Source of the DNA: Eledone cirrhosa
Lineage: Eukaryota
NCBI GenBank assembly: GCA_964016885.1
Contig: OZ024740.1
Coordinates: forward strand, 61,070,001-61,134,000
Reading direction: 5' to 3'
Length of the DNA: 64,000 bases
Shown: one piece after another, positions 2,860 through 57,000 of the stretch
Layout: each line of letters opens with the position of its first letter
Numbering within the stretch: position 1 is the first letter of the stretch
The notes under the pieces: model-generated
Database searches by the model: none
Seen by the model: only the letters and a program-made list of their open reading frames with translations
Told to the model about the DNA's origin: nothing
Translations under genes and position numbers: made by a program

Positions 2860-3630
2860 CTTGATTATAGAAGAAAGCTTTTTTTTTAAAAGTTTCTTCA
2901 GTTACAAGTGTCAGTAATTTCAAAAACACTACGAGCAAGTCATCAGCAAGCATTTGTATGAACTGTGTAATCTCCAATTTCAAAGTCTAAAAAAATAAAG
3001 AAATCATTTTAAATGTTAGCATCAAAATTTTCATTCAATTTTACAGAAAAACATACAAGCAAATTACTTCTAAATTATGATTGATCAGGCCCTTTATATA
3101 GTATAAAACTGAGGTGTTTTGTAAGTATAGTTTGATGCATGTAACTAATTCTATATATAGAAGATATGAATAAGTTGCTATGAATCAGTCAAAATTGTAA
3201 TCTTTTCAGATATATAGAATTAGTAATAATTATCAGCAAAAATGTTATCTAAAACAGATTGGGAAAAAATATTCTTCATGATTTACTATAGTTTACTCAG
3301 AATAAAACTATTTAATTGAATATCACTTTTTACTATTATCTATAGAAGTTTACTTAAGTTTTATGTGCAGTACAGATGCTCAAATGAATCAAAGATAAGT
3401 CCTATTGGGCTGAAGTGGTGAGAGCTGATCTCAAATCACTGAGACTCACAGAGATGACAAAAGAATGCGGTGAGTGGAGAGATGCTGTGCTGAAAATAAC
3501 CCATCCAATCCATGCAAGGGTGGAAAAACAGATGTAAAGAAGATAATGATGATGATGATGATTTGTGTTTTGGAATCAGTTACAAATGTCTGTCTTAGTA
3601 AGAAAACATTATTATGGTGCTATAATTATA

Positions 3631-3840
3631 AACACTGATGCAGTAACATAATATAGGACATTGTCCTATTTCCATAATTAGGAACATTGGTACAGTACCA
3701 TAATAAAAGGCACTGTCATGGTGCCATATTTAGGAACATTGATGCAGTAACATAATACAGTGCATTGTCCTATTGCCATAATTAAGAATGTTAGTGCTGT
3801 GTCATAATATAGGGCACTGTCATGTTGATATAATATACTG
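3631..3840. repeat. Minisatellite, about 4 x 52-bp units
   Basis: Units aacactgatgcagtaacataatatagg... / aacattggtacagtaccataataaaagg... repeat about every 52 bp. Confidence 0.75.
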
Positions 3841-5230
3841 ATTTAATATGGTGAAAAAGATTCCTGTGTGAGAGAAAGATACTGGTATAGTAACATGGAA
3901 GTGAGCAGAAAAATTGTGTTGTACAATGCTAGAGAAAAAGTTATAACATATTGAAATGAAAGCCAATAGATGAGTTTTTAGCAGTTAATAACAGAAGGAT
4001 GTTTTAATGTAGTAACAAAGTTGTTAGAAGAAATAATGTAATTGTTATAACGCCACGAGTAATCAGTTTGGTAGAAAGATGTTTGGCAGTAAGGGTGCTT
4101 ACGGATATATCCCATTCTGGACAAAATCAACCAGTGAGACATCCTGTTAGATAGGTGAGCTATTCTTTCCTCCCTTGTACCTCTTCCATTCGAGGTTGAT
4201 AAAAAAGTAGAAGTCAAGTACTGGAGTCAATTCTCCCTCTATATCTCTTTCACACTTCAATTCTTCCACTCTCTATCCTACTCTGGAAGAAATCTGCTGT
4301 ATTCAAGCCTGGAGAGGAGATGGGCTCTGCTAGGTTTTAAAAAATGCCCTATAAATGCTGTATGTCTATATAGTGCCCCCATGACTCCCTCACGAGATAC
4401 GGGACCATGCATGCATCACAAGATAATAAGTTATTGAATTCCTTTGACTAAGAACATATCCAGTTGAATACAATATCACCAGTATATTATAGATATTTAT
4501 TTTATTATGTCCAAAGAGATGAAAGCATGTTGACAGTGGTAAGATTTAAACTCAGAATATAGATGTATGATACTTTATATTATTCTGTAATGCATCAAAT
4601 CTAACACAATTATTTCACAACTCACCCTTAGATAAATTTACTATACATCCTTAGAGAAACTGAATATTGATTGGTTGAAAGGAGGAAATGTTAATCCATA
4701 GCCTGATAAGCTGTCCTTCAGTCTACTACAATTATAAATGGCTAAGAGTTTTCCATGGTTGATATGACTATTTTAAAAAAGATGGAAGCTAATAAATTAG
4801 AATGACAGTGTGGTATGTAAAGATCTGCAGGGAATTTGACGTACCAAAACATTTTGATTGTTATGATAGTGAAACTAGTGAGTTCTTGGGAGCAGACACT
4901 GTTTTAGTAGTGATAAAAGTAACAAAAGCTAGATCACAGCATATGAGAAGGCTGGATTTATGGACAACACAACTATGATATAAATTAGGACACAACATGA
5001 AAATATATAGTAAGTTACAGTATCACAGACCTGTAAAATATGTCCAGCAGGGCAATTCTTATATTACTCTTGCTCATATGTTCCAGCCATAGTTGTAATT
5101 TTTTTGTGCTAGATACCCTTTCTAGTGCCAACCACTTTTGAGGGTGTACTGGGTGCACCAGCACTACCACTTTACAGAGTGTATGTAGTGTGTGCAGTTT
5201 ATTGAAACTATTATATTGATAACTATTATA

Positions 5231-5308
5231 TCTCCTGGACAGATTAGTGATTAATTTCGCCCTGAGTGTGTTTGTAACAGATAATCCTCGGGCATCATCA
5301 GGGAGAGA
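5231..5308 (-). ncRNA. Degenerate hammerhead ribozyme (inverted copy)
   Basis: Reverse complement of 5627-5708, but CAGA is deleted from stem III and the G closing stem I is changed to C. Confidence 0.65.
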
Positions 5309-5626
5309 ATTTGATTAAATGTGACAAACACCTAATGCTTACAGGCACATAAAAGTGAAAATTTCACCTCATGTGTTGCAAGTCAAAAGTTATAATGCTC
5401 AGTATTTATACTTTGAGCTTGTTAATTGCAGGGTTTCAGTATGAGTTATTAACTCTACCTTTCATTTATATTTCGGCTCCCTTTCTAGGTGAGCTTATAA
5501 GTTGTGTGTATTGGACTGTTATTTCTGGCCAATCCACTCACACCACTTTTGACTAGCAACGCATGAGGTGAAATTTTCACTTTTATGTGCCTGTAAGCAT
5601 TAGGTGTTTGTCACATTTAATCAGAT

Positions 5627-5708
5627 TCTCTCGCTGATGATGCCCGAGGATTATCTGTTACAAACACACTCAGGGCGAAACAGATTAATCACTAATCTGT
5701 CCAGGAGA
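5627..5708 (+). ncRNA. Type I hammerhead ribozyme
   Basis: CUGAUGA 5634-5640; stem II GCCC/GGGC; GAAA 5677-5680; 8-bp stem III ACAGAUUA/UAAUCUGU; GUC cleavage triplet 5699-5701; stem I UCUCUCG/CAGGAGA with one mismatch. Confidence 0.8.
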
Positions 5709-6379
5709 TATAATAGTTATCGAGGCGGTCTGTATATATTTTTACCTTTCTGTCTGTTTCATGGTTAAATATTTCAAACAAATGTGGTTCTTTAACCCTC
5801 ATAATATTAGACACACGATTTACTGTGTTTATTACTGCATATATTATTATAATGCTCAGTATTTATACTTTGAGCTTGTTAATTACAGGGTTTCAGTATG
5901 AGTTATTAACTCTACCTTTCATTTATAAAAATAAATACATAGATATAGGCATGGCTATGTGGCACAGGCATTTTGCAACCACATAGTTTCGGGTTCAGTT
6001 ATACAACATGGCACTCAGGGCAAATGTTTTCTAATATAGCTTCAAGTTGACCAATGCCTTGTGAAGGAAATTTGGTAGGCAGAAACTATGTGGAAGCCCA
6101 TTGTGTATATTTATGAATATATGTGTGAATGCATGTACATATATCTGTTTGTGAATATTCACTGCCTTGTAATAAAAAAGTTTGACAAAATAAGAACTTC
6201 CAAGAAAGAGTCACAAGCACATTGGGAAAGTCATGCTGCAAATAAAACCAAAATATAAAAATATCTGTTTCAACAAATTTCACATCAACAATCTTGCAAA
6301 ACAAATACAAAAATGAAATTTTATAAGTACTGTTACCACCAATTATTAATCCTCATTGTCATTGTTGCCATCATCATTA

Positions 6380-22852: not shown

Positions 22853-22854
<2 letters not shown>

Positions 22855-24434
22855 CCTTAGCAACCCCACTGAAGATGCTCTTCAGAAGCTCCTTGGCTAG
22901 CGGTGTACTACCCAGGGAGCTGAAAGAAGGCACAATATGCCCTATCCATAAAGGAGGTAGTAGAGCGGAGGCCAAGAACTATAGGCCAGTCTCCCTGACG
23001 TCGCATATCAGTAAGGTCATGGAGCGAGTCGTCAGAAAGAAACTAATCACTTTCCTCGAGGAAAATGACCGCCTGACTAGCACGCAACATGGCTTCCGCC
23101 CAGGAAGAAGCTGCCTTACACAGCTGCTACATCACTACGACTGGGTACTGAGACAACTACTAGACAGCTCACATGTGGACGTGATATATCTTGACTTTGC
23201 GAAGGCCTTTGACAAGGTCGACCACGGAATGATGTGTCACAAACTACACGGACTCGGCATAACTGGAAAAGTAGGTGAGTGGCTGCATGGCTTCCTAAGG
23301 GACAGAAGCCAGGCAGTCGCAGCAAATGGGGCCCTCTCGAGGGAAACACCAATAACAAGTGGGGTGCCCCAGGGGACAGTCCTGGGACCACTACTGTTTT
23401 TGGTGGCTCTCTCGGACATGCCCTCTGTGGTGCATGCAACAACATCCCTCACTAGCTATGCTGATGACACTAAGGTAGCACAGGCAATCAAAAACCCGGC
23501 TGACGCTGCCCTTTTACAGCAGGATCTGGATGCCATATACAAATGGGCGGAAGAAAACAACAAGCAGTTTAATGCTGGCAAATTCCAAGTCCTACAATAC
23601 AAACCTGCAAACACAAATATAGTGGAACACAGCTACACAGGACCAGGTGGGACCGATATCCCCGTGTCAAAATCGATACGAGACCTGGGCATAGACATGA
23701 GCGATGATGCATCTTTTTCTTCACACATCATGAAGGTGGCAACAATGTGCAGACGACTCGCTGGCCGGATCTTGAGGACTTTCCGGACAAGAGATCGAGA
23801 CACCATGTTGACACTGTGGAGGACTTTTGTCCTAAGCCGCCTGGACTACTGCTCCCAGTTGTGGTCACCCCATAGTGTCAGACTAACCACGGAGCTTGAG
23901 GCAATCCAGCGAAGCTACACCAAGAGGATTGCCAAGATGAGGGAGACAAGCTACTGGGAGTGGCTAAAGGAACTGAACCTCTACTCCTTGGAGCGAAGAC
24001 GGGAGAGATACGCAGTGATCTACATGTGGAAAATCCTGGAGGGACTAGCACCAAACTTTGGCATTGGGAGCTGGACCAACCGTCGAACAGGACGTCACTG
24101 TGTGGTGCCAAAGGTCCCGTCTTCCACATCTAGAATAAGGAGCAGGTATTGCAATAGCCTGGGATTCAAGGGCCCTCAACTCTTCAACAGGCTGCCGAGC
24201 CGATCTGAGAGACTTGCATGACGTGGAGGTGGATGTCTTTAAGAAACATCTCGACACCTTGTTATCCAGGATCCCGGATGAGCCCACAGCAAGACACGAG
24301 GGAAACCTAAGGGCAGCAGCAACGAACTCCCTCTTACACCAGTGGCCAACCTATACAGGCTGGAGATAAAATGCGTAGCAACAAGGGCGGTGCCCCAGCA
24401 TGGCCTCAGCCGGATGGCTGAAACAGGTAAAAGA

Positions 24435-25692: not shown

Positions 25693-28600
25693 CGCCCCCC
25701 TGATCTCAAGGATCAATTTCCCTCTCGTCCTTCTGCATATGAAAGTCTGCTGTCCAGGTTGGTGGTTTGCGACTTCTTTGCGATCTCCGCAGTGTTGGGG
25801 CAGCACTTTGGGTTTCCTCTCCCTCGGAGTCCGTTAACACAGTGATTCTATGGACATCCAGGACATGACGTGGTACTCCGTCCACGGACACATTGTTCTG
25901 GGAATTTACGGCCGTCACCGTTCCCCTTCCCCATTGAGATGTGCAACGTGCATCTGGGGCTTAACCCAGACTTCTTCGCCCACCTGCACGAATGCACTCT
26001 CTCTCCCCACTGACCGTTGTGGTGGCATGCACGGGTGCCGCCACTCGTATCTGAATACTGCTCTGTGTGGCACCGATTCCTCGACTTATCCCACCCGAGG
26101 GGACATGTTGTACCAGAACACTGCCTCCATTGGTGAGATATGGCCCCGCTCGCTATTGCCTTGATCGTCCGGTAGTGTCGCTCCACAATTCCATTCCCGC
26201 TCGGCCTGTGCGCTGCTCTGAAGAAACGGTCCATCTTCCATCCATCGAGCATCTCCCTCAGCGCCTCCGAGCAGAACGCTGCGCTGTTGTCCATCAACAG
26301 TTCGTCCACAGGGCCCCGCTCCAAGAACACCTCTCTCAACGTGATTTCCTCGGCCGTTCCAGTCTTCATCTCCCTCCATATCGCCATCCGTCCCGGTCCA
26401 CAGTCGACCATCGAGAGGTACGTTCCCTGTCGGTAGTGCGTTACATCCACCGCCAATCGCTTCCAGTCGCGATCCACCGGGAGGCTTCCCGTTTCGTGCA
26501 CACCCGGGGCGGGATCAATGGACTGACATCGGACGCAGCCTCTAACCACCCTTTGAACACTGTCTGTTAACGTCCGAGTCGATTCTCCTGGCTAGGAACA
26601 GGCTCCTATCCAGTCCCATGTGGTACATGTCATGCAACCGTTTCAGATCCGACACACGGCAGCTATCTCATCCTCTACCTCCTCCGGCGCTTCCATCCAG
26701 GCTTTCTTCACCCTAGTTAAGACGTCCGCCCTATTTTTCTATGAGGGCACGAAAACTACGCTCAGCCTCAGGTCGAACTCGGTGGCCAGCTCTCCTAAAG
26801 TTCCCAGGCGGCGCTTTATCAGCATCTCCGCTGCCCCTCTCGTTCGCACTCTCTTCTCACTGGTGAGCACTGATCTCACCCATCCGAGTACAGTAGCCGA
26901 GTCAGTGCGTATCTCGGTGGTGTGCAGTCCCCACCCCAAGGCGAGGTTCACACCTCTCAACACCGGTGTCCAGCTCGATGTGGTTGCAGTCGTCCTTCTT
27001 CCTAAGCCAGGCTGCATCCTCGACCTCAACACCTCCTATCTCCAACGTGACACCCAGCGCTATGCTGCTGGCATCGCACCATACGGTCCCGCTCTGCGAT
27101 TTGGGAACGTACCAGCGTCCCCGCACTGGGTCGTCGGCCTTCACCCTCCCCACGATCTCCTGCACCATGACCACCGTCCTCTCTCCCACTCTGTCACTCC
27201 AAGTCACCCCTCCCGCTCGTCTCTTGACATAGCTGCATGCCGTCCGGAGCCACCCAGCAATCGGGTAGTGACCCACCAACTTTCCACACACCGAGAAAAG
27301 CTCCCGCCTACTCATACTTGGGCCCAGTTCTGGAACTTCATTTCCCCTCTGGAATACCAAGACGCCCGTCATGTCTCGCTGTAGCCTAAGTCCCAGCGCG
27401 GCTCCTCCCTCCAACGCTTCTGGCGGCTTCGCAGCCAGTCCATACCCCTGTAAATGGCTCGTGACCTCCGCCGCCGACACCACAGACTCGTCCACTAGGA
27501 TGTCGTCAATGTAGGTGTTAGTGGCCCACTTCATCTTGTCGGCCTTTCCCAGAATGGTCTTGAGGACCGCCGCCATGATCTTCGGTGTGGGGCTCAGCCC
27601 GAAACCGAGCCTGGTCAGGCAATATGTCCGGCCCTTATACCTGACCAGCTGATACTGCCAGAGCTTCTCATCTATATGCAATTGCAAGTATGCCGACTTT
27701 AGATCTACGATTGCTGAACCCCCGTCATGCGTCTCCACCCACGCAGGGTTTCCCCACAGACACCCGTGACCTCGCCACCCGTGTTGCATGACACGTGCTC
27801 GTTCAGCTCCCGAAAGTCCAGCACCGGCCTCACCTTGTTCTTCGTGGGTTGTGCAACCGCCATTAACGGCAATACTCCGTACTTCACCTCCTCTTTCCAG
27901 GGAAGCAGTATGCCCTCCTCAATCCATCTCTCTACCTCTCGCTCGAACTCGCTCCCAATGTTTCCCTTCAATGTGTGTTGATAGCAGCCCACTTTGGTCT
28001 TCAGTATTGGTGGTTCTCCCTTCCAGTACCACTCAACAACCCATCGCTGCCCATCGAACACGGCCTTGAAGTCTTTGTCCTGCACAGTGTAAGCGGGGTA
28101 TTTCTCCTCGTGGGCCTTCTGGTTCTCTTGTCGCGTACTCAGCGCATACCGATGCAGCGCCGCCAAACGACACACCGACGTTGTTCACTGTGACGCTTCC
28201 TAGACGGCCAATTGCGTCCATGCCCATAACCACACCGATCCCATCCACCACGTTGTCAACTACGATAGCAGAAAGCCTTATTTTCCTTCCCCGTACCACT
28301 ATCTCCACCTCGTTGCGACCTCGGCATTCAATTTTCCTGCTGTCGACTGCCCTTACGCTGCTCTTCCCTCTCCACCTCTGAGCCACCCCCGCGGTCACCA
28401 GTGTCGTCGTACAGCCCGTGTCCACGAGGGCTCGCTGTGGCTTTCCCCTCACGAAGACTTCCACCACGGGCAGCGCCTCTACTCGTAAGGGGAAACTACC
28501 GGCGCAGTAGTTCTCCTTGGATCGTTTCCCTCGTCGCAGTTAGTAGCGATGTGGCCTGGTCGCTTACACCGGTAGCATATTATTTCCGGCCTTGACTCTC

Positions 28601-48000: not shown

Positions 48001-51000
48001 CTGACATTATGGATTCTGCTAATCCACCACTCTATTAACTGGCACTCCGTCGGTTACAACGACGAATGTTCCAATCGATCCGATCAATGAAACAGCCTGC
48101 TTGTGAAATTAACGTGCAAGTGGCTGAGCATTCCACAGGCACGCATACCCTTAAGATTCATCCCTGGGAGATTCAGCGTGACACCGAATGTGACAAGGCT
48201 GGCCCCTCGAATTAGGGTACAACTTATTTTTGCCAGCTGAGTGGACTGGAGTAACATGAAATAAAGTGTCTTGCTCAAGGACACAACACGCCGCCAGGAA
48301 TTGAACACATAACCTTACAGATGTGAGCCGAATACCCTAACCACAAAGCCACATGCCTTCACCACTCTATATTTTATTAATAACAATATCTACCCTCTGT
48401 CAACAACTTCAAAAATAATGAAAGATTACATACATACATTAAATAACTCGAAGTGTATATATATATCACCTCACATATTCAGAAAACATGACACTATGTT
48501 AGAATCATGACTATTTGATATTTAATACTACAACTAATAATGTTTTCTAGCCTTAGCCGGAGGGTTTAATAAATTATTGGTCATTAGAATAGCTCTGTGC
48601 TCTAAGTTCAAAACCCACCGAGTTCAACTTTGCCTTACATCCTTTCCGGTTGATGAAAAATGTACCAGTCTAGTACTGGAGTTGATTCTTCTGCTGTATC
48701 TCTTTCTTACTTCTCTATCACCCTCTCTTTCTCTGGACAAAACTGACTGTGCTCAGACTCAGAGAGGGGATGAGCTCCATCAGGTTTTAAAATGCTCAAG
48801 ACATGCTGTATGTCACTACAGCACCCCTACAACTCCATCTGGAGTTATGGGGCTATACATCAATTATATCAACTCTCCAAATATTCTACTTAACCCTTTA
48901 GCATTTACATTACTCTATATTTACTATTATATTTTCATGGTAACGGTTTTACCTCACATAATATTGAATCTATGAGATTGATATTATTTATTTTGAGAAT
49001 AATACCGTAACATCAGTAGGAGTGGCTGGTTACGGCCAGATGTGAGAAAATTCTGGCTGGATACGGCCAGTTTAAATGCTAAAGGGTGAATCAAGCCCAG
49101 AGCACAAAAGGTACAGTTGACTTTCAACAGAATTTGAACTCGCAACATGAAAGGGTGCAACTAAATACTGAAAATTGTTGAATAACAATGGGATAGTAGG
49201 CAGACTAACAGAAAAGGTAAATTTTGTATGTGGCAGATGTAGAGGGATTTGAACTCAGAACAAATACCTTCTGGCACTTTGTCCAATGCTCCAAAGATTC
49301 TGCCAATCCAACCAACCTAACAATAATAGCAACACTACAACAACAATAACAGTAGCAACAACAATAACAACAGTAAAAACAATAATAAACCAATTACAAA
49401 AAATATTATATCAACATATGCTATCAACCTGAACCAGTGTTCTACATAACCAGATTACAGAGATTGATTTCAATATCCAGAACACCTCAATGTACACACA
49501 AAACAATGAATTCAACAGGTGAGCAAATATATAAACTTTGTAAAACTAGTGTATTGCTGTAGTAACAATAACCAACAAGATGACATGTTTATATATAGAA
49601 GGTATATATATCATCATCATCAACCTTGTAGCCTCTGATAAAGCTAGGCGTGAAAGTCGGATTGCTTTCCGAACACGTCCTGGTCTTCCACCTGATGTCC
49701 GCCCAAAGTTGCGTGCTGCAGCTTCCCTAAACCGCAGCTCGGCAGAACATGAAAGCTTCAGCCTACGAGATGATGGGCAGATATGGAGGTTTGTTAAGGC
49801 TGGCGAATCATGGAAAAGAGACACCAGCTGGTCTGAAAACAGTGTACCCACAACAACTGACAATAAAGAAACTGAAAAAACTCTGGGAAACTAAATCAGA
49901 ACAACCTGCCATCCCCTGCACATAATCATAGACTGGAATCAAAGTACAAACTGTTGTCCTTGAATGCACGTAGTCTATGCAATAAGATTCATCTTTTTGA
50001 CTCCTACGTCAAAAGTATCAACCCGGACTTCATTACAGTCACGGAAACTTGGGCACATCCCTTACTCTGTGATGGGGTTTTCAGCATGACTGGCTACAAC
50101 CTGTTTCGTAAAGACCGTATTAATCGTCGTGGTGGTGGTGTAATGGTCTACGTTCGGTCAAATCTGTCGGCAATTCCTTGTGCTGATTTGAACCAATCAC
50201 AGCAGGAAGTTTTTTTCTGCGATATACGTATGACCATGTCAACACTGCTACTTGGAGTCGTTTACCGTCCCCCAAATTACCATCAGGACACTCAACTTTG
50301 TGATATCCTCAGAGCTGCTGCCAGGAAGACAGCCACTTATGTTTTCATTGCAGGTGACTTCAATCACCCTGAGATTGACTGGGAGACCTTTCGTTGGCTG
50401 CCAAGTGCAAATGACTTCCTTGAGCTGGTGCTGGACTCGAGTTGGTCCCAGGTGGTCACCTCCCCAACGAGAGGTGACAACACTTTGGACCTACTCTTCA
50501 CCACTACTCCTGAAACGGTCATTAGTGTTACTGCTGAGGAACCTTTAGGTGACTCTGATCATGCTATGATCATTGCCAATCTATCCCTCATGGGCAGTAA
50601 CAAGAACCACAACCATCTCCAAACTGCTCACTTTGACTGGAATAGAGCAGACTGGAACTGTTACTGCACCGAGTTGCAACGGCCAAACTGGCTTGAGTTC
50701 TATGACTCTGGAGATGTCAACACTGTACTCCAGAACATCCTGAGCTCAATATGGACAGCATGTGCAGCATCGGTGCCACGTAAGCGGAAAAAACATCCTA
50801 AAAGCGCAATTTGGGAGACTGCAGCAGTCCGTCTTGCCAGAAAAGAACGGCGCAATGCTGAACGTGAGTACAAACTTCATAAATCAGACATTAATAGGAA
50901 GAGGCGAAATAGATCGTCCAACCACCTCAAACAGGTGACAAAAAAGGCAGTGCTTCAATTTGAGCAGCGCATAGCAACCAGCCCTGACAGTAAGGTGTTC

Positions 51001-54000
51001 TGGAAGTATGTTCACTCAAAGCAGAGGCCTCACTCTCCAATTGGTCCTCTTCGCAATCCCCACACAAGCCAGGTTACTGACGACCCCAAGGAATGCGCAG
51101 AGCTCATTGCTGAATGCTATGCAGGCATTTTCACCATTGAAGACCAGAGTGTACCATCTCCACCACCTACGACACCGGACTCTATTACAACCATGGAATT
51201 TACACCTGCAATGCTGCGACGTCACCTAAAAAATAAACGCAACCATGCCTCTCCTGGTCTTGATGGTGTTACGTACCTGCTTCTTAAACGTGGTGGGTAC
51301 TTCCTTCTACGCCAGTTATCACGCTTCTTCCAATTCTGTCTGAACAACAGTGCTACTCCAGAACAGTGGAAAACTGCCAGTGTAATTCCTCTGTTCAAAA
51401 AGGGTGACCGCACATCACCTGTGAACTATCGTCCAGTCAGTCTTACTAGTTGCATCGCCAAACTGATGGAATCCTGTGTCAGAGAAACACTTTGGAACTT
51501 CTGGAGCTCTCACAGTCTTATCCGGCCTTCGCAATTTGGATTTATCCCCAACTCCAGCTGCTGTGATCAACTTATAGAGTTTCTTGAGGACATCACCCGG
51601 ATCACTGATGGCGGCTCATGGGTGGATGTTGTTTACCTTGACTTTGTGAAGGCCTTCAATTCTGTGCCGCACAAAAGGCTTATGGCAAAACTCTCTGCAA
51701 TGGGTGTGAAGGATGATCTTTTTAACTGGTTGAAGTCCTTCATTCTCAGTCGAAGAGAGGTAGTCACGGTTCTGGGACAGCATTCCTCACCATATGAGAT
51801 GTCATCTGGTGTACCTCAGGGATCTGTTCTTGGCCCCCTTTTGTTTGTGGCATATATTAATGACATAGATGCCAACTTAAGGAATGCCACAGTACTAAAG
51901 TACGCAGACGACATCAAGCTGTACCTTGAGATAAAAAGGACAGATCCTGAACACTATAGATCTTGCTTGCAGTCTGACCTGGACACAATGCAACAGTGGA
52001 TCTCAGACTGGCAACTCAAGCTAGCTGTGGACAAGTGCACCACCATGCATTTTGGGAGTAAAAACCCAGCGTCCACATATTCCCTCCACAGCACTAATAT
52101 CAAGAAGTCTTCCTGTGAACGTGACCTGGGCATTACGGTCAGCAGCGATTTGCGTTGGACGAGGCACGTCTCTAAAATTGTCAAGAGGGCCGAGGGTGTC
52201 TTAGCATCACTCAGCAAGACCTTTGTCAGCCGCTCTCCAGATATCTATTTAAGGCTGTATACAGCTATGGTGCGACCACACTTAGAATTTGCATCACCAG
52301 TCTGGAACCCCTATCTTGCTCAGGACATTGACCGCCTGGAAACTGTTCAGAGACGTGCAACCAAGCGAATACCCTCCATCAGGCATCTACCATACTCTGA
52401 TCGCCTTGCTTCCCTGGGCATGGATTCATTGAAGCTCCGACGCCTGGCAACTGACTTGGTAAACACCCACAAAATTGTTAACCATGTTGCCAACAACAAC
52501 CCTGAGTGCCTTTTCGATTTCCATGTGTCTAACACACGTGGACATGCCCACAAAGTAAGAAAACAGCACAGTTCCCATGACTTTCGGAAACATTTTTTCA
52601 CGCTCAGAGTTGCTGAAGCATGGAACAAACTACCTGCATCAGTTGTTAGCTGTCGAGACGCTGCATCCTTTAAGGCCTCCATGCTTCCCGAGATCCGCCA
52701 ACACTACAGCTAACACATACAAACATGTACTTCCCTGGCATTTGTGTATTATTCTATGTACTATATTGACGAGTTGTAGTGCACCTGAGCACTTTACACA
52801 ATAATTTCATTATTATTATCATCAACGTTTAACGTCCGTGTTCCACGCTTGCATGGGTTTGGACGGGGGTAGTCCCACTTGAGGCAAGAGTGATTGTCTT
52901 GCTCGCATAGGACTGTCTGGCAGGTTTTCTACAGTTGGATGCCCTTCCTAACACCAACCACATTTACAGTGTGGGTCTGGGAGGTTTTTTACCGTGTTGC
53001 CTACACGGCCACATTACAGCGTGGACTGTGTGTTTTTTTGTCGTGACACCTACACGATCTCATTTGTTTCGGCCTCGATGGCGCGGCACCAACATAACTT
53101 TACATAGAACGGGGTGGTGTGGATGGGGTGGGGGTGGGGGTGGTGGGACGGGGTGTATTTTGTTAGAGATGCCTACTGGCTGGAGTAGGTTTTACTATAT
53201 ATTTAGGTAAGGCGGGTCTTCTCTGTTACTGAGTACAAATTGATAGAGTTGTAAAATGTTGGATAGAATGATTTGTAATATCTATTTCAGCTCTCTGTGC
53301 TCTCATCATCATCATTGTATAACATCCATTTTCCATGCTAGCATGGGTCATCATCATCACCATTTTACATCCATTCTTCCACACTTAGACGGGTTGTCCT
53401 GTTGTGGACAGTGTCTGGTCGGCTGACCATGCCTTGCTCATACAGGAACTGATTTGGCTTGATTTCTACATCTGGATGCCCTTCCTAACACCAACCTCAT
53501 TTACAGTGAGTGCTGGGTGCTTTTTCGTGGCGCCTACACGTCCACTTTACAGTATGGGCTGGGTGCTTTTTTGCCGTGGCACCTCCACGACCACCTTGCA
53601 GTGGGAGGGTGTGGGGGCATATTGTCTATATGCTTCAGCTTGTACCCATGGGAGGTCTGTATTACTGCGTGACGCCAGAGGTCACAGTCGTGTGTGGAGA
53701 GGTGTAATTGGGTAAGGTCGGCTTTTATCACCTCATCCCAGGTCATCTTGGGTCTCCCCACTCCGCGGTTTCCATCGACTTCTAGTGCTCTGCACCTTTT
53801 TATGCAGCTGTCATCCTTCATACGCATCACATGTCCATACCAACGCAACCGCCTCTCCTGCACACAGCATTTGATTCCTCTTATGCTCAGTCTCTCTCTC
53901 AATTCATTTATGCTTTGTCGGTCGCGTATTTTACTATTACACATCCATCGGAGCATGCAGGCTTCGTTTCTCTCTAATCTACGTAAGTCTTCCACCTTCA

Positions 54001-57000
54001 GTGCCCAGGTCTCACTACCATGTAGCATTGCTGTTCGGATACACGCATCATACAGTCTGCCTTTCATTTTGAGGGAGAAGCCTTTTGCAGCTAGCAGTGG
54101 TAGTAGTTCCCTGAACTTCTTCCATCCCGTTCTTACCCTAGTTATTGTACTTTCTGAACACCCACCTCCGCTGCTAATTCAGTCACCTCGGTAGCAGAAG
54201 CTGTCTACTGTCTCTACAGAGCCCTCCCAGAGATTGGTGGTACTTGTTTCCTGTGGCTGTTTGCTGCTTGCTGTCCCAGTACAGCTGCTGCATGTGAAGC
54301 CTACATTCTTAATTAAGCTTCCCGAGATCCCGCTACATCTCTTGTGTACCCATTGTTTGCATTTGGGGCAGAGAATGGAGTTCCTACCTACACCTTTCTT
54401 ACATACTGAGCAAGGCCATTTCCCTGAGGGGATCTGGGTTCTGTTTTCTCGTCTCCTTACAAGGACCTTAGTCTTTGTCATGTTGACTTTGAGACCCTTT
54501 CTTTCTAGTCTCTGCTTCCAAGTTTAGAATTTCTTCTCTAGTTCTACCATAGATTCAGCTATAAGTGCAAGGTCATCAGCATACAGGAGTTCCCATGGGC
54601 ATCCGGTCTTAAACTCCTCCGTTATTGCCTGCAGGACTATGATGAACAGGAGAGGGCTAAGAACAGAGCCCTGGTGGACACCAACCTGTACGCTAAATTC
54701 CTCGCTATACTCATTGCTAATCCTAACTTTGCTGACTGCTCCCCTATACATGGCTTGTACAGCTTTCACAAGCCATTCATCTACTCCTAATTTTCTAAGA
54801 GCCCACCAGATTACAGCACGTGGAACTCTGTCAAAGGCTTTCTCGAGATCGATGAATGCCAGGTAGAGTGGCTTACTTTTAGCTAGGTACTTTTCCTGTA
54901 ACTGCCTCACAAGGAAGAGGGCATCAGTGGTGCCTCTTCCTGGTACAAACCCAAATTGCATCTCATCTAGTTTCACCCGGTCCCTAATCAACTGTGCTAT
55001 AACTCTTTCTGTTACTTTCATGACCTGGTCCATCAGCTTTATACCTCTATCGAGTGCATCACCTTTACCTTTGTAGCAGTTGACAATGATGCTACTGCAC
55101 CAATCTTTTGGTATGACACCTAGTATTACCTGGTTAACAATACGTGTGGTTATAGTGTGACCTACAGACCCAGATGCCTTCAGCATCTCGGCAGCTATAC
55201 CCGATGGACCGGTTGCCTTACTTACTACGCTGCTGCTGACTTGTACTGCTGGCCCCTCTATAGGGTCTACTTGGGGTAGGGTCTCTTTTTCCCATGCATT
55301 CTCCTCATTTAGTAATCTATCATAAAGACTCTTCCATGCATCTTTCTTCTCAGCACTTGTGAGGGCAAGCTCACCTTTATCATTCCGGATACACTTCTCT
55401 CCAATGACATCACAATTCTCTCTGACACACTGCCTCGCAATCTTGAACACCTCCTGTTTCTGGTCCTCTTGTTGCAAAACATGCTTGAATTTTCTATCCT
55501 CTGCTTCCCTCCTAGCTAAGTATACTTGTCGCCTAGCTTCCCTCTTGGTCTCTATGTAATGTACCCTGCTCCCCCCATTCTTCCATTCTTTCCATGCCTG
55601 TCTCTTGGTCTTAACTGCCTCATCTACCTTATTGTTCCACCACCAAGTCACTCTCCTCCTGCTTGTGGTCTTACTCCAGCCACAGACCTCATCCGTCGCC
55701 TCTAGTAAGTTATTTTTTAGGAACTCCCAGTGCTCTTCTACATTGAATGTCTATCTGTTCTTCTCTACTGTCGTAGGCGTTGAGTAAAATATCTTTAAAT
55801 CTGTTACTGGCTGAGGGGTCTTTCAGCTTCCAGATCTTTCTTATCCAGGTTGGCCTCTGTTTCCAGGTTCGTCTAGTTCTGACCGTGAGGTTGCTGACAA
55901 CTAAGCTATGTTGGGAGGTACATTCCTCACTAGGGAAGGCTTTTATGTTTACGACCGTCCATCTGTCACGTCCTCTGATGAGGATAAAATCTATCTGACT
56001 AGAATGCTCCCCTGATACTGCAAGGTAATGTCACACTGGTGGGATTTGCACTCAAAATTTAAAGGGATAGATATTAGACACTACAAGGTATTTTGACCAG
56101 TGCACAAATGATTCTTCCAGTGATGTGATGATCCATTTGAATATCAATCACTTGACTTAGACATCAGGTGGTTGTCGGGTTTTTTAAAGTTTGTGTTACA
56201 TATCGACATGTCATTGGCGTCGCAGAATTCTAGAAGTCTGAATCCTTCATTTCTTGTGCCAACCCCATGGCCTCCATGGACTCTATTGAAGCCGTCACAG
56301 TGTTTACCTACGTGTCCGTTAAAATCTCTTGCGATGATTAGGAAGTCATTGTCGTTTGTTAGAGCAGTAGTGTGCATTAGGGACTCGTAAAATCTATCCT
56401 TAAGTTCGTCTGGCAACCCCGATTGGGGTGCGTAAGCTGATATTATTGTGGTAATTGTTTTATTCAGGACTAGTTTGAGTTTAATGATTCTTGCATTTAC
56501 CCTGTACACTGAGATTACTTTATCTACCCACTTGTCAGCTAGTAGTATACCTACACCACCCATCCCATCGTCATTTCCCACCCAGAAAAATTTGTAGCAC
56601 TGACTTTTTCCTACAAGGACTTTAGCAGACTCTCCTCTCCATCTAATCTCTTGCACACAGCATACATCAATTTCCTTTCGCTCTAGCATTTCTACGATTT
56701 CTCCTGCTCTTCCTTTCATTGTGCTTACATTGATGGTACCAACTCGGAGTTTTGGGCATTTGTCGACACTCGTAGGGAAGGGTCGATTTTTGCAAGGGTG
56801 TGTGTGTGTGTGTGCTTCTCTCTGGATTGGGGCTTCACATGGGTGCTTGGTAGCTCGCGGATTCATATTCATTTCATCTATTAATTCAGAGTTGCTCCAA
56901 TTTATTCTCAGCTCATCCATACATAATGGTAGGAAAATTCAGGGCTAGAAGAACAGTGGTGGTGGTAATAATGGCAGGGTGTGTTGAGGGCTGGGACGGG

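Follow-up and report, generated by a model that had tools for sequence, protein, structure and literature searches.

Introduction

Metazoan non-LTR retrozymes, known from coral, mussel and axolotl, are ORF-less tandem repeats of low GC content with a type I hammerhead in each unit, dispersed as monomers and dimers, and Penelope-like elements have been proposed as their mobilisers (PMC7229834; 10.64898/2026.07.22.740005). The repeat presented here lies in a window of 64,000 nucleotides of the Eledone cirrhosa genome, i.e. the whole stretch of DNA that was analysed, and it resembles these elements in composition, organisation and type of motif. As in the mussel retrozymes, its hammerheads are devoid of the usual loop-loop nucleotides (PMC7229834; 10.64898/2026.07.22.740005). 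In contrast, the units found here are 457-529 nt long compared with 170-400 nt, and their loop II of 27-35 nt is predicted to pair with a long upstream strand, a feature of which there is no mention in the parts of these two sources on which we draw. Furthermore, expression, circles and cleavage have been shown for the metazoan non-LTR retrozymes, whereas cleavage of the elements described here is a prediction from their sequence.

The other relevant precedent is that of the pseudoknotted hammerheads (Perreault et al. 2011, PMC3088659), in which a Watson-Crick helix joins the sides of stem I and stem II. According to the text of that study, approximately 40% of hammerheads use such a pseudoknot, without which the construct under study did not cleave fast; very short stems II, of 1-2 bp, occur, and the helix can be established ahead of the other parts of the motif. 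The predicted helix between the upstream strand and loop II, hereafter called helix P, shares this connectivity, its early formation and its association with a short stem II. It differs from the examples in that text by its length (16-21 bp as opposed to 4-6 bp, i.e. about three times longer), its internal loops, its taut return linker of 5-10 nt and its occurrence in an animal repeat.

Hammerheads are also present in the pLTRs of Penelope-like elements. They share with ours the type I order and an extra base before stem II, and the insertions of those elements have a comparable fold-back and tail anatomy and TA targets (PMC8557442). However, helix III is minimal or absent in the metazoan pLTR motifs, for which activity as dimers is assumed, whereas stem III comprises 5-8 bp across all families described here and no ORF is attached to the unit (PMC8557442). 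As a stable helix III and cleavage as a monomer characterise most invertebrate type I motifs according to a review (PMC7761336), stem III is not the novelty. In the giant squid genome, 235 Rfam hammerhead matches have been reported (PMC6962438). The literature that we searched, whose figures and supplements lay outside the search and may bear on the matter, yielded no octopus retrozyme, no animal repeat with a long loop II pseudoknot and no natural hammerhead with A instead of U at core position 4.

The class of element is known, and a single copy such as that of the window is ordinary; the new part is the architecture that involves helix P. Our overall interpretation, which we consider probable, is that we are dealing with a type I hammerhead that belongs to a unit of 457 nt, likely a retrozyme propagated by a Penelope-type enzyme at TA-rich sites, that it is held by a predicted brace of 16-21 bp, and that the window copy is impaired.

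A hammerhead motif in the window

The elements CUGAnGA, GAAA and NUH are present in type I order around three stems (Table 1), and the segment is predicted to be a type I hammerhead, a self-cutting motif in which the cut is expected after C5701. A previous sequence-only reading had placed CUGAUGA, an extra U, GCCC/GGGC, GAAA, stem III and GUC in this segment, and direct reading finds them all where it had placed them. Stem III has 8 bp if the A-U pair of the core is counted, and it is closed by a loop of 5 nt; its probability is 0.96-1.00 in every fold computed. That reading had also extended stem II by GAG/CUC. Its GCCC/GGGC part stands, but we dropped the extension as a family feature since it is specific to this copy, position 5647 being T in 14 of 19 relatives and A in the other 5. 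A scrambled-order (type SGC) reading was dropped as well, as the order in the window copy is canonical (PMC10085705).

Table 1. Features of the repeat locus and of the predicted hammerhead, in window positions
Feature	Position	Strand	Basis or remark
Putative retrozyme monomer, 457 nt, 35% GC, ORF-less	5390-5846	+	Direct-repeat spacing 457; genomic copies collinear with tandemly repeated units
Start of second unit, 81-nt repeat of 5390-5470, 99%	5847-5927	+	Ends at fixed 3' end E2, Penelope-type tail
Inverted 5'-truncated arm, copy of 5545-5721	5218-5390	-	169/177 identical
Second hammerhead copy, broken	5231-5308	-	First stem I pair lost, 4 nt deleted at GAAA/stem III boundary
Helix P 5' strand (8+3+5 bp), predicted	5604-5622	+	Fold of 5598-5715; family tests
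Stem I 5' strand	5627-5633	+	Read from sequence
Core CUGAUGA (5634-5640) plus one inserted U5641	5634-5641	+	Read from sequence
Stem II (4 bp: GCCC 5642-5645 with GGGC 5673-5676) and 27-nt loop II	5642-5676	+	
Helix P 3' strand, within loop II, predicted	5649-5667	+	Covers most of loop II
Return linker, 5 nt, between helix P 3' strand and stem II	5668-5672	+	
GAAA (5677-5680), stem III (5680-5687 with 5693-5700), GUC (5699-5701)	5677-5701	+	
Stem I 3' strand	5702-5708	+	Carries rare A5703

The pattern made of the core plus GCCC matches twice in the window, where 0.09 matches are expected, and the second match is the inverted copy. Genome-wide, the stem III pattern has 124 exact matches, and its reversed control has none. 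Rfam, to which the sequence-only reading had looked for confirmation, returned no hammerhead match for the motif even at E values up to 10, nor for three sister-family loci at E up to 1. The length of loop II is the likely reason why Rfam misses this hammerhead. Rfam matches of microRNA and snoRNA-like type were discarded as chance matches of the microsatellite type.

As for the remainder of the window, it harbours a C2H2 zinc-finger exon on the minus strand (2089-2990, with a likely splice acceptor near 2990), a 52-bp tandem array of about four copies (3614-3824), and reverse transcriptase ORFs, one of which codes for 945 aa with an endonuclease domain, together with a DUF7047 ORF in a GC-rich stretch (22854-24221, 49876-52713, 54524-56938 and 26902-27918). 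ARAGORN detected no tRNA head within the window.

The repeat unit and its genomic copies

The sequence-only reading had proposed that the motif may mark an undescribed ribozyme-bearing repeat family of cephalopods. A multi-copy family does exist, but it belongs to a known class of elements. Three things had been overlooked: the unit of 457 nt, an inverted arm and the long helix with the upstream strand, the last being the unusual part. No ORF of at least 120 aa is present across 5390-5927. Genome searches revealed dispersed copies of the unit, and a second exact pattern for the family gave 212 genomic matches versus 0 in the control, and a looser superfamily pattern 987 versus 44. Copies run upstream by up to 735 nt, collinear with a tandem, into the previous unit, and they reach no shared ORF.

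For statistics on the arms of these insertions, 53 of 90 loci were used, after removal of 22 duplicates, 5 loci of another subfamily and 10 of one larger duplicated block. These loci had been selected for their resemblance to portions of the unit, and the following counts therefore do not represent a random sample. Among 95 arms, 40 stop near 5394 (site E1) and 40 at 5471 (site E2), i.e. 80 of 95 at two fixed sites, and a TA-type repeat adjoins 66 of those 80. Fold-backs are found at 34 of the 53 loci, and 24 of these 34 have outer arms that end at different sites, one at E1 and one at E2. An arm longer than 470 nt is present at 24 of the 53 loci. The cut site is read through by 61 of the 95 arms, and 5' ends are not enriched there, with only 1 of the 95 lying at that position. 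Most genomic copies have one hammerhead per arm. Pairs of hammerheads in tandem nevertheless occur, at spacings of 474-475, 484-495 and 503-529 nt (L057 and L110 for the 474-475-nt spacing; L145, L186 and others), the window locus itself having no such pair. We conclude that the unit is likely a dispersed non-LTR retrozyme inserted in the Penelope fashion.

Some additional observations pertain to the ends of the copies. An element of 130-200 nt often sits in the internal TAT-repeat (E1) site of the unit, where copies end (L016, L017, L066 and L084). A TTCGGCTCC-like motif is located at 5472-5481, directly 3' of E2, and it is found in all families, including B, D and E, despite low similarity elsewhere. 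The motif bears a loose likeness to a Pol III B box, or it may be an enzyme recognition site. Lastly, a larger block duplicated on several contigs (L009, L011-L014, L016, L020, L021, L023, L026 and L029) carries a three-armed copy of the family and, 680-840 nt from it, a family D-like motif with the core CUGAUCA, in which G8 is changed and C3 is not.

Sister families

The searches also retrieved related families, whose units are 474-529 nt long. The expectation that genomic copies would preserve the core and show covariation in the stems was borne out, as the core and stems I-III are kept and covary across families of different sequence. In a 42-row cross-family alignment, whose rows were preselected for a significant helix P and in which MAFFT misregistered family E, 96.6% of the cells of stem I are paired, with two-sided changes in 5 of its 7 pairs, and 94.3% of those of stem III, with two-sided changes in 5 of its 8 pairs. 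Of 181 units, 177 have retained core residue G5, 180 A6 and 178 A9, counts that are bounded by a unit filter allowing one core mismatch only. Core position 7 and the insert before stem II (0-3 nt) differ by family, and families D and E have a reduced stem II of 2-3 bp.

Family E (L172, L185, L186, L190, L195 and others) has the core CAGAnGA, with A at position 4, and keeps the stems and helix P. The CAGAnGA pattern gave 348 matches versus 5 in the control, and 89 of 100 among the matches listed carry A by hand count. Judging from these matches, this sister family, with its A at position 4 of the core, has multiplied into hundreds of copies.

Helix P

Folding of 5598-5715 yields a z-score of -2.93, with none of 200 shuffled sequences as stable; three relatives folded likewise give only -0.8 to -1.4. 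The predicted helix P has 16 bp in the window copy and 16-21 bp in sister families of different sequence. We considered 190 distinct units, of which 9 labelled 'other' were removed as false matches. In 135 of the remaining 181 units, at least one of which (L137) is a further false match, the duplex between the upstream strand and loop II beats 95% of shuffles; family labels are leaky in this test and some of the failures are 5'-truncated copies. The downstream-flank control reaches this level in 11 of the 181 units only, and pairing of loop II with a strand downstream of stem I was dropped as a candidate.

In 13 representatives, the predicted duplex comprises 17-21 pairs (18 in the window copy if two fringe pairs are counted). 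The mean energy of self-pairing in this set is -17.8 kcal/mol versus -9.3 kcal/mol for cross-group duplexes (sd 3.2, n=126), some of the latter being as strong as self-pairing (minimum -18.4). At its distal end, helix P reads GUGUUUG/CAAACAC for the group that includes the window copy, and family E has GUGAAAG/CUUUCAC instead, i.e. three two-sided changes in register. Template switching could produce such complementarity. However, the changes keep G-U pairs and the internal loops are retained, which points instead to constraint and selection on helix P at the RNA level. The covariation of helix P rests on roughly five or six lineages. Within family E, in an alignment of rows preselected for a significant helix P, there is almost no two-sided change, and part of it comes from one false-match row. 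The upstream strand-loop II helix predicted beside the hammerhead is a new feature, unusually long and kept in related families.

Helix P crosses stems I and II, which makes the structure a pseudoknot if all of them coexist. It ends 0-4 nt from both stems in most of the 13 representatives, and in family E it abuts them with no spacer; its distal 8-9 bp are its strongest part. The return linker is 8-10 nt long in most families, but it measures 5 nt in the subfamily of the window copy and 6 nt in some members of family E. By a crude A-form estimate, 8-11 linker nt would be needed to span 20-23 nt of straight helix, so that the geometry fits at 8-10 nt and is strained at 5-6 nt (7-9 or more needed, again a crude estimate). 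As 5-6 nt are below what a straight helix needs, helix P must bend or fray in those cases.

The strain of the shortest linkers raises the possibility, which we deem unlikely, that helix P is a lock. A unit could then not close its own stem II, and its half made of GAAA, stem III and the cleavage strand would dock on the P loop of a neighbouring unit in a type II-like order across the tandem, such that cutting would be confined to multimers and would spare monomer circles. Fraying is indeed improbable given the strength of the distal base pairs, the swapped order corresponds to a pseudoknotted type II layout described in PMC3088659, tandem hammerhead pairs exist, and the text of PMC7229834 states that some unknown mechanism must keep the circles of metazoans blocked. 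Nevertheless, the 8-10-nt linkers of most families just suffice in cis, bending is possible at the internal loops, and there is just one hammerhead per arm in most genomic copies.

In nested and circular folds, computed with a program that cannot represent pseudoknots, helix P has a probability of 0.92-1.00 and stems I and II are near zero. Taken at face value, these figures would agree with helix P being only a structural or inhibitory stem, which would stabilise circles or hold the RNA in an off state and would have to open for a conventional monomeric hammerhead to act; blocking by complementary sequences is known for plant retrozyme and viroid circles (PMC7229834). We find this quite unlikely. 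The program is blind to the very structure at stake, and helix P is local and the first to form, so that, if it did nothing but block, there would be no opportunity for cutting. The placement of its ends next to stems I and II in most families also speaks against a mere block, and a stem II of 2-3 bp is unlikely to form unaided.

The order of the sequence implies that helix P is complete before GAAA is transcribed, and the fold kept by selection must therefore probably form with helix P present. Based on these models, we favour a brace acting in cis over both the exchange of strands between units and a plain off state: helix P likely braces the hammerhead for cutting, and possibly locks it.

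Relationship with Penelope-like elements

Insertions of Penelope-like elements are characterised by partial tandems, inverted copies and a tail (PMC8557442). The family described here displays 5' truncation, partial tandems, inverted arms, a tail at one end and microsatellite targets. The stagger between E1 and E2 is about 77 nt, compared with 30-40 bp for Penelope-like insertions in the text of the same source (PMC8557442).

This shared anatomy could mean that the unit, instead of being a retrozyme in its own right, represents the truncated pLTR, or terminal repeat, of an autonomous Penelope-like element. The extra base that precedes stem II, a typical trait of Penelope hammerheads (PMC4209133), and the relationship of frog retrozymes to pLTRs (10.64898/2026.07.22.740005) go in the same direction. 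Nevertheless, we hold this origin to be very improbable: the upstream extensions of the copies, up to 735 nt, lead into the previous unit and not into an ORF, Penelope fragments are found near only 4 of 120 loci, and the three visible junctions place such fragments beyond a microsatellite or on the other strand.

A very young and abundant Penelope-like family is present in the genome (L241-L260), with approximately 96% protein identity among the top copies and frames of up to 719 aa, in which a reverse transcriptase and, at the C-terminus, a GIY-YIG domain were recognised by eye. Its hammerhead, detected at 3 of 20 loci, is minimal and unlike that of the unit, which also argues against a pLTR origin. 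No homology was found between the unit and this family beyond one locus that holds both and one 23-nt match. In the sampled loci, with 1.5-kb flanks and for one Penelope family, no ORF combining reverse transcriptase and GIY-YIG is flanked by the repeat. As no sequence link between the unit and an autonomous Penelope was found, we infer the mobiliser from insertion anatomy only, which makes a Penelope-type enzyme the likely candidate for the independent retrozyme that we propose.

State of the window copy

Stem I had been described in the sequence-only reading as having one A-C mismatch. Both strands and the mismatch, C5632-A5703, are found by direct reading, but the lowest-energy fold of 5620-5715 lacks the catalytic stem I: stems II and III form, and the core CUG (5634-5636) pairs with CAG (5702-5704). 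In a model without pseudoknots, the first stem I pair, G5633-C5702, has a probability of 0.00 in the window copy versus 0.68-0.96 in most copies with an intact stem I, and the probability of this pair exceeds 0.5 in 78 of 135 units. An A at 5703 is present in 2 of 59 units with an identical 5' strand, most relatives having G.

Both arms of the window insertion have A5703 and several other minority letters in common. The template probably already had A5703, or the arms have been homogenised. Fold prediction for an RNA spanning both arms pairs 77 of the 82 bases of the motif with the inverted arm. The window copy is thus probably impaired: A5703 would misregister stem I, the inverted arm could mask the motif by pairing with it, and cutting would be poor or nil. 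As A5703 is shared by both arms and family E has spread with a changed core, copying may not depend on efficient cutting.

The zinc-finger exon mentioned above suggests a possible host context. If the insertion lies in an intron of that gene, the host pre-mRNA contains the broken hammerhead in sense orientation and the better one in antisense. It would also contain a 173-bp hairpin, which could be edited.

Discussion

In the mechanism that we propose, a multimeric transcript would fold in order, starting with helix P. The loop of helix P would hold CUGAnGA together with one strand each of stems I and II, and GAAA, the stem III hairpin and the cleavage strand, which are made later, would dock on this loop. 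Helix P would thereby stand in for the usual contact between loop I and loop II, and it would make up for the shortness of stem II (2-4 bp). Cuts after GUC would free unit-length RNA, which might be circularised. A Penelope reverse transcriptase/endonuclease would then prime at two TA-like sites and copy round the unit, giving rise to two-armed insertions of 1-1.6 units.

About a thousand motifs in this genome are predicted to share a hammerhead with a brace between stems I and II that is two helical turns long. As Rfam misses such long-brace hammerheads, counts of animal hammerheads may be underestimates. The families also constitute a natural series, differing in the sequence of the brace, the length of the linker (5-10 nt), stem II (2-4 bp) and the residue at position 4 (U or A), for relating folding order to cleavage. 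Moreover, if helix P restricts cutting to multimers, it bears on the question, already raised in the field, of how retrozyme circles persist. Should the lock prove true, retrozymes would cut as multimers and their circles would stay intact, which would represent a new way to gate a hammerhead.
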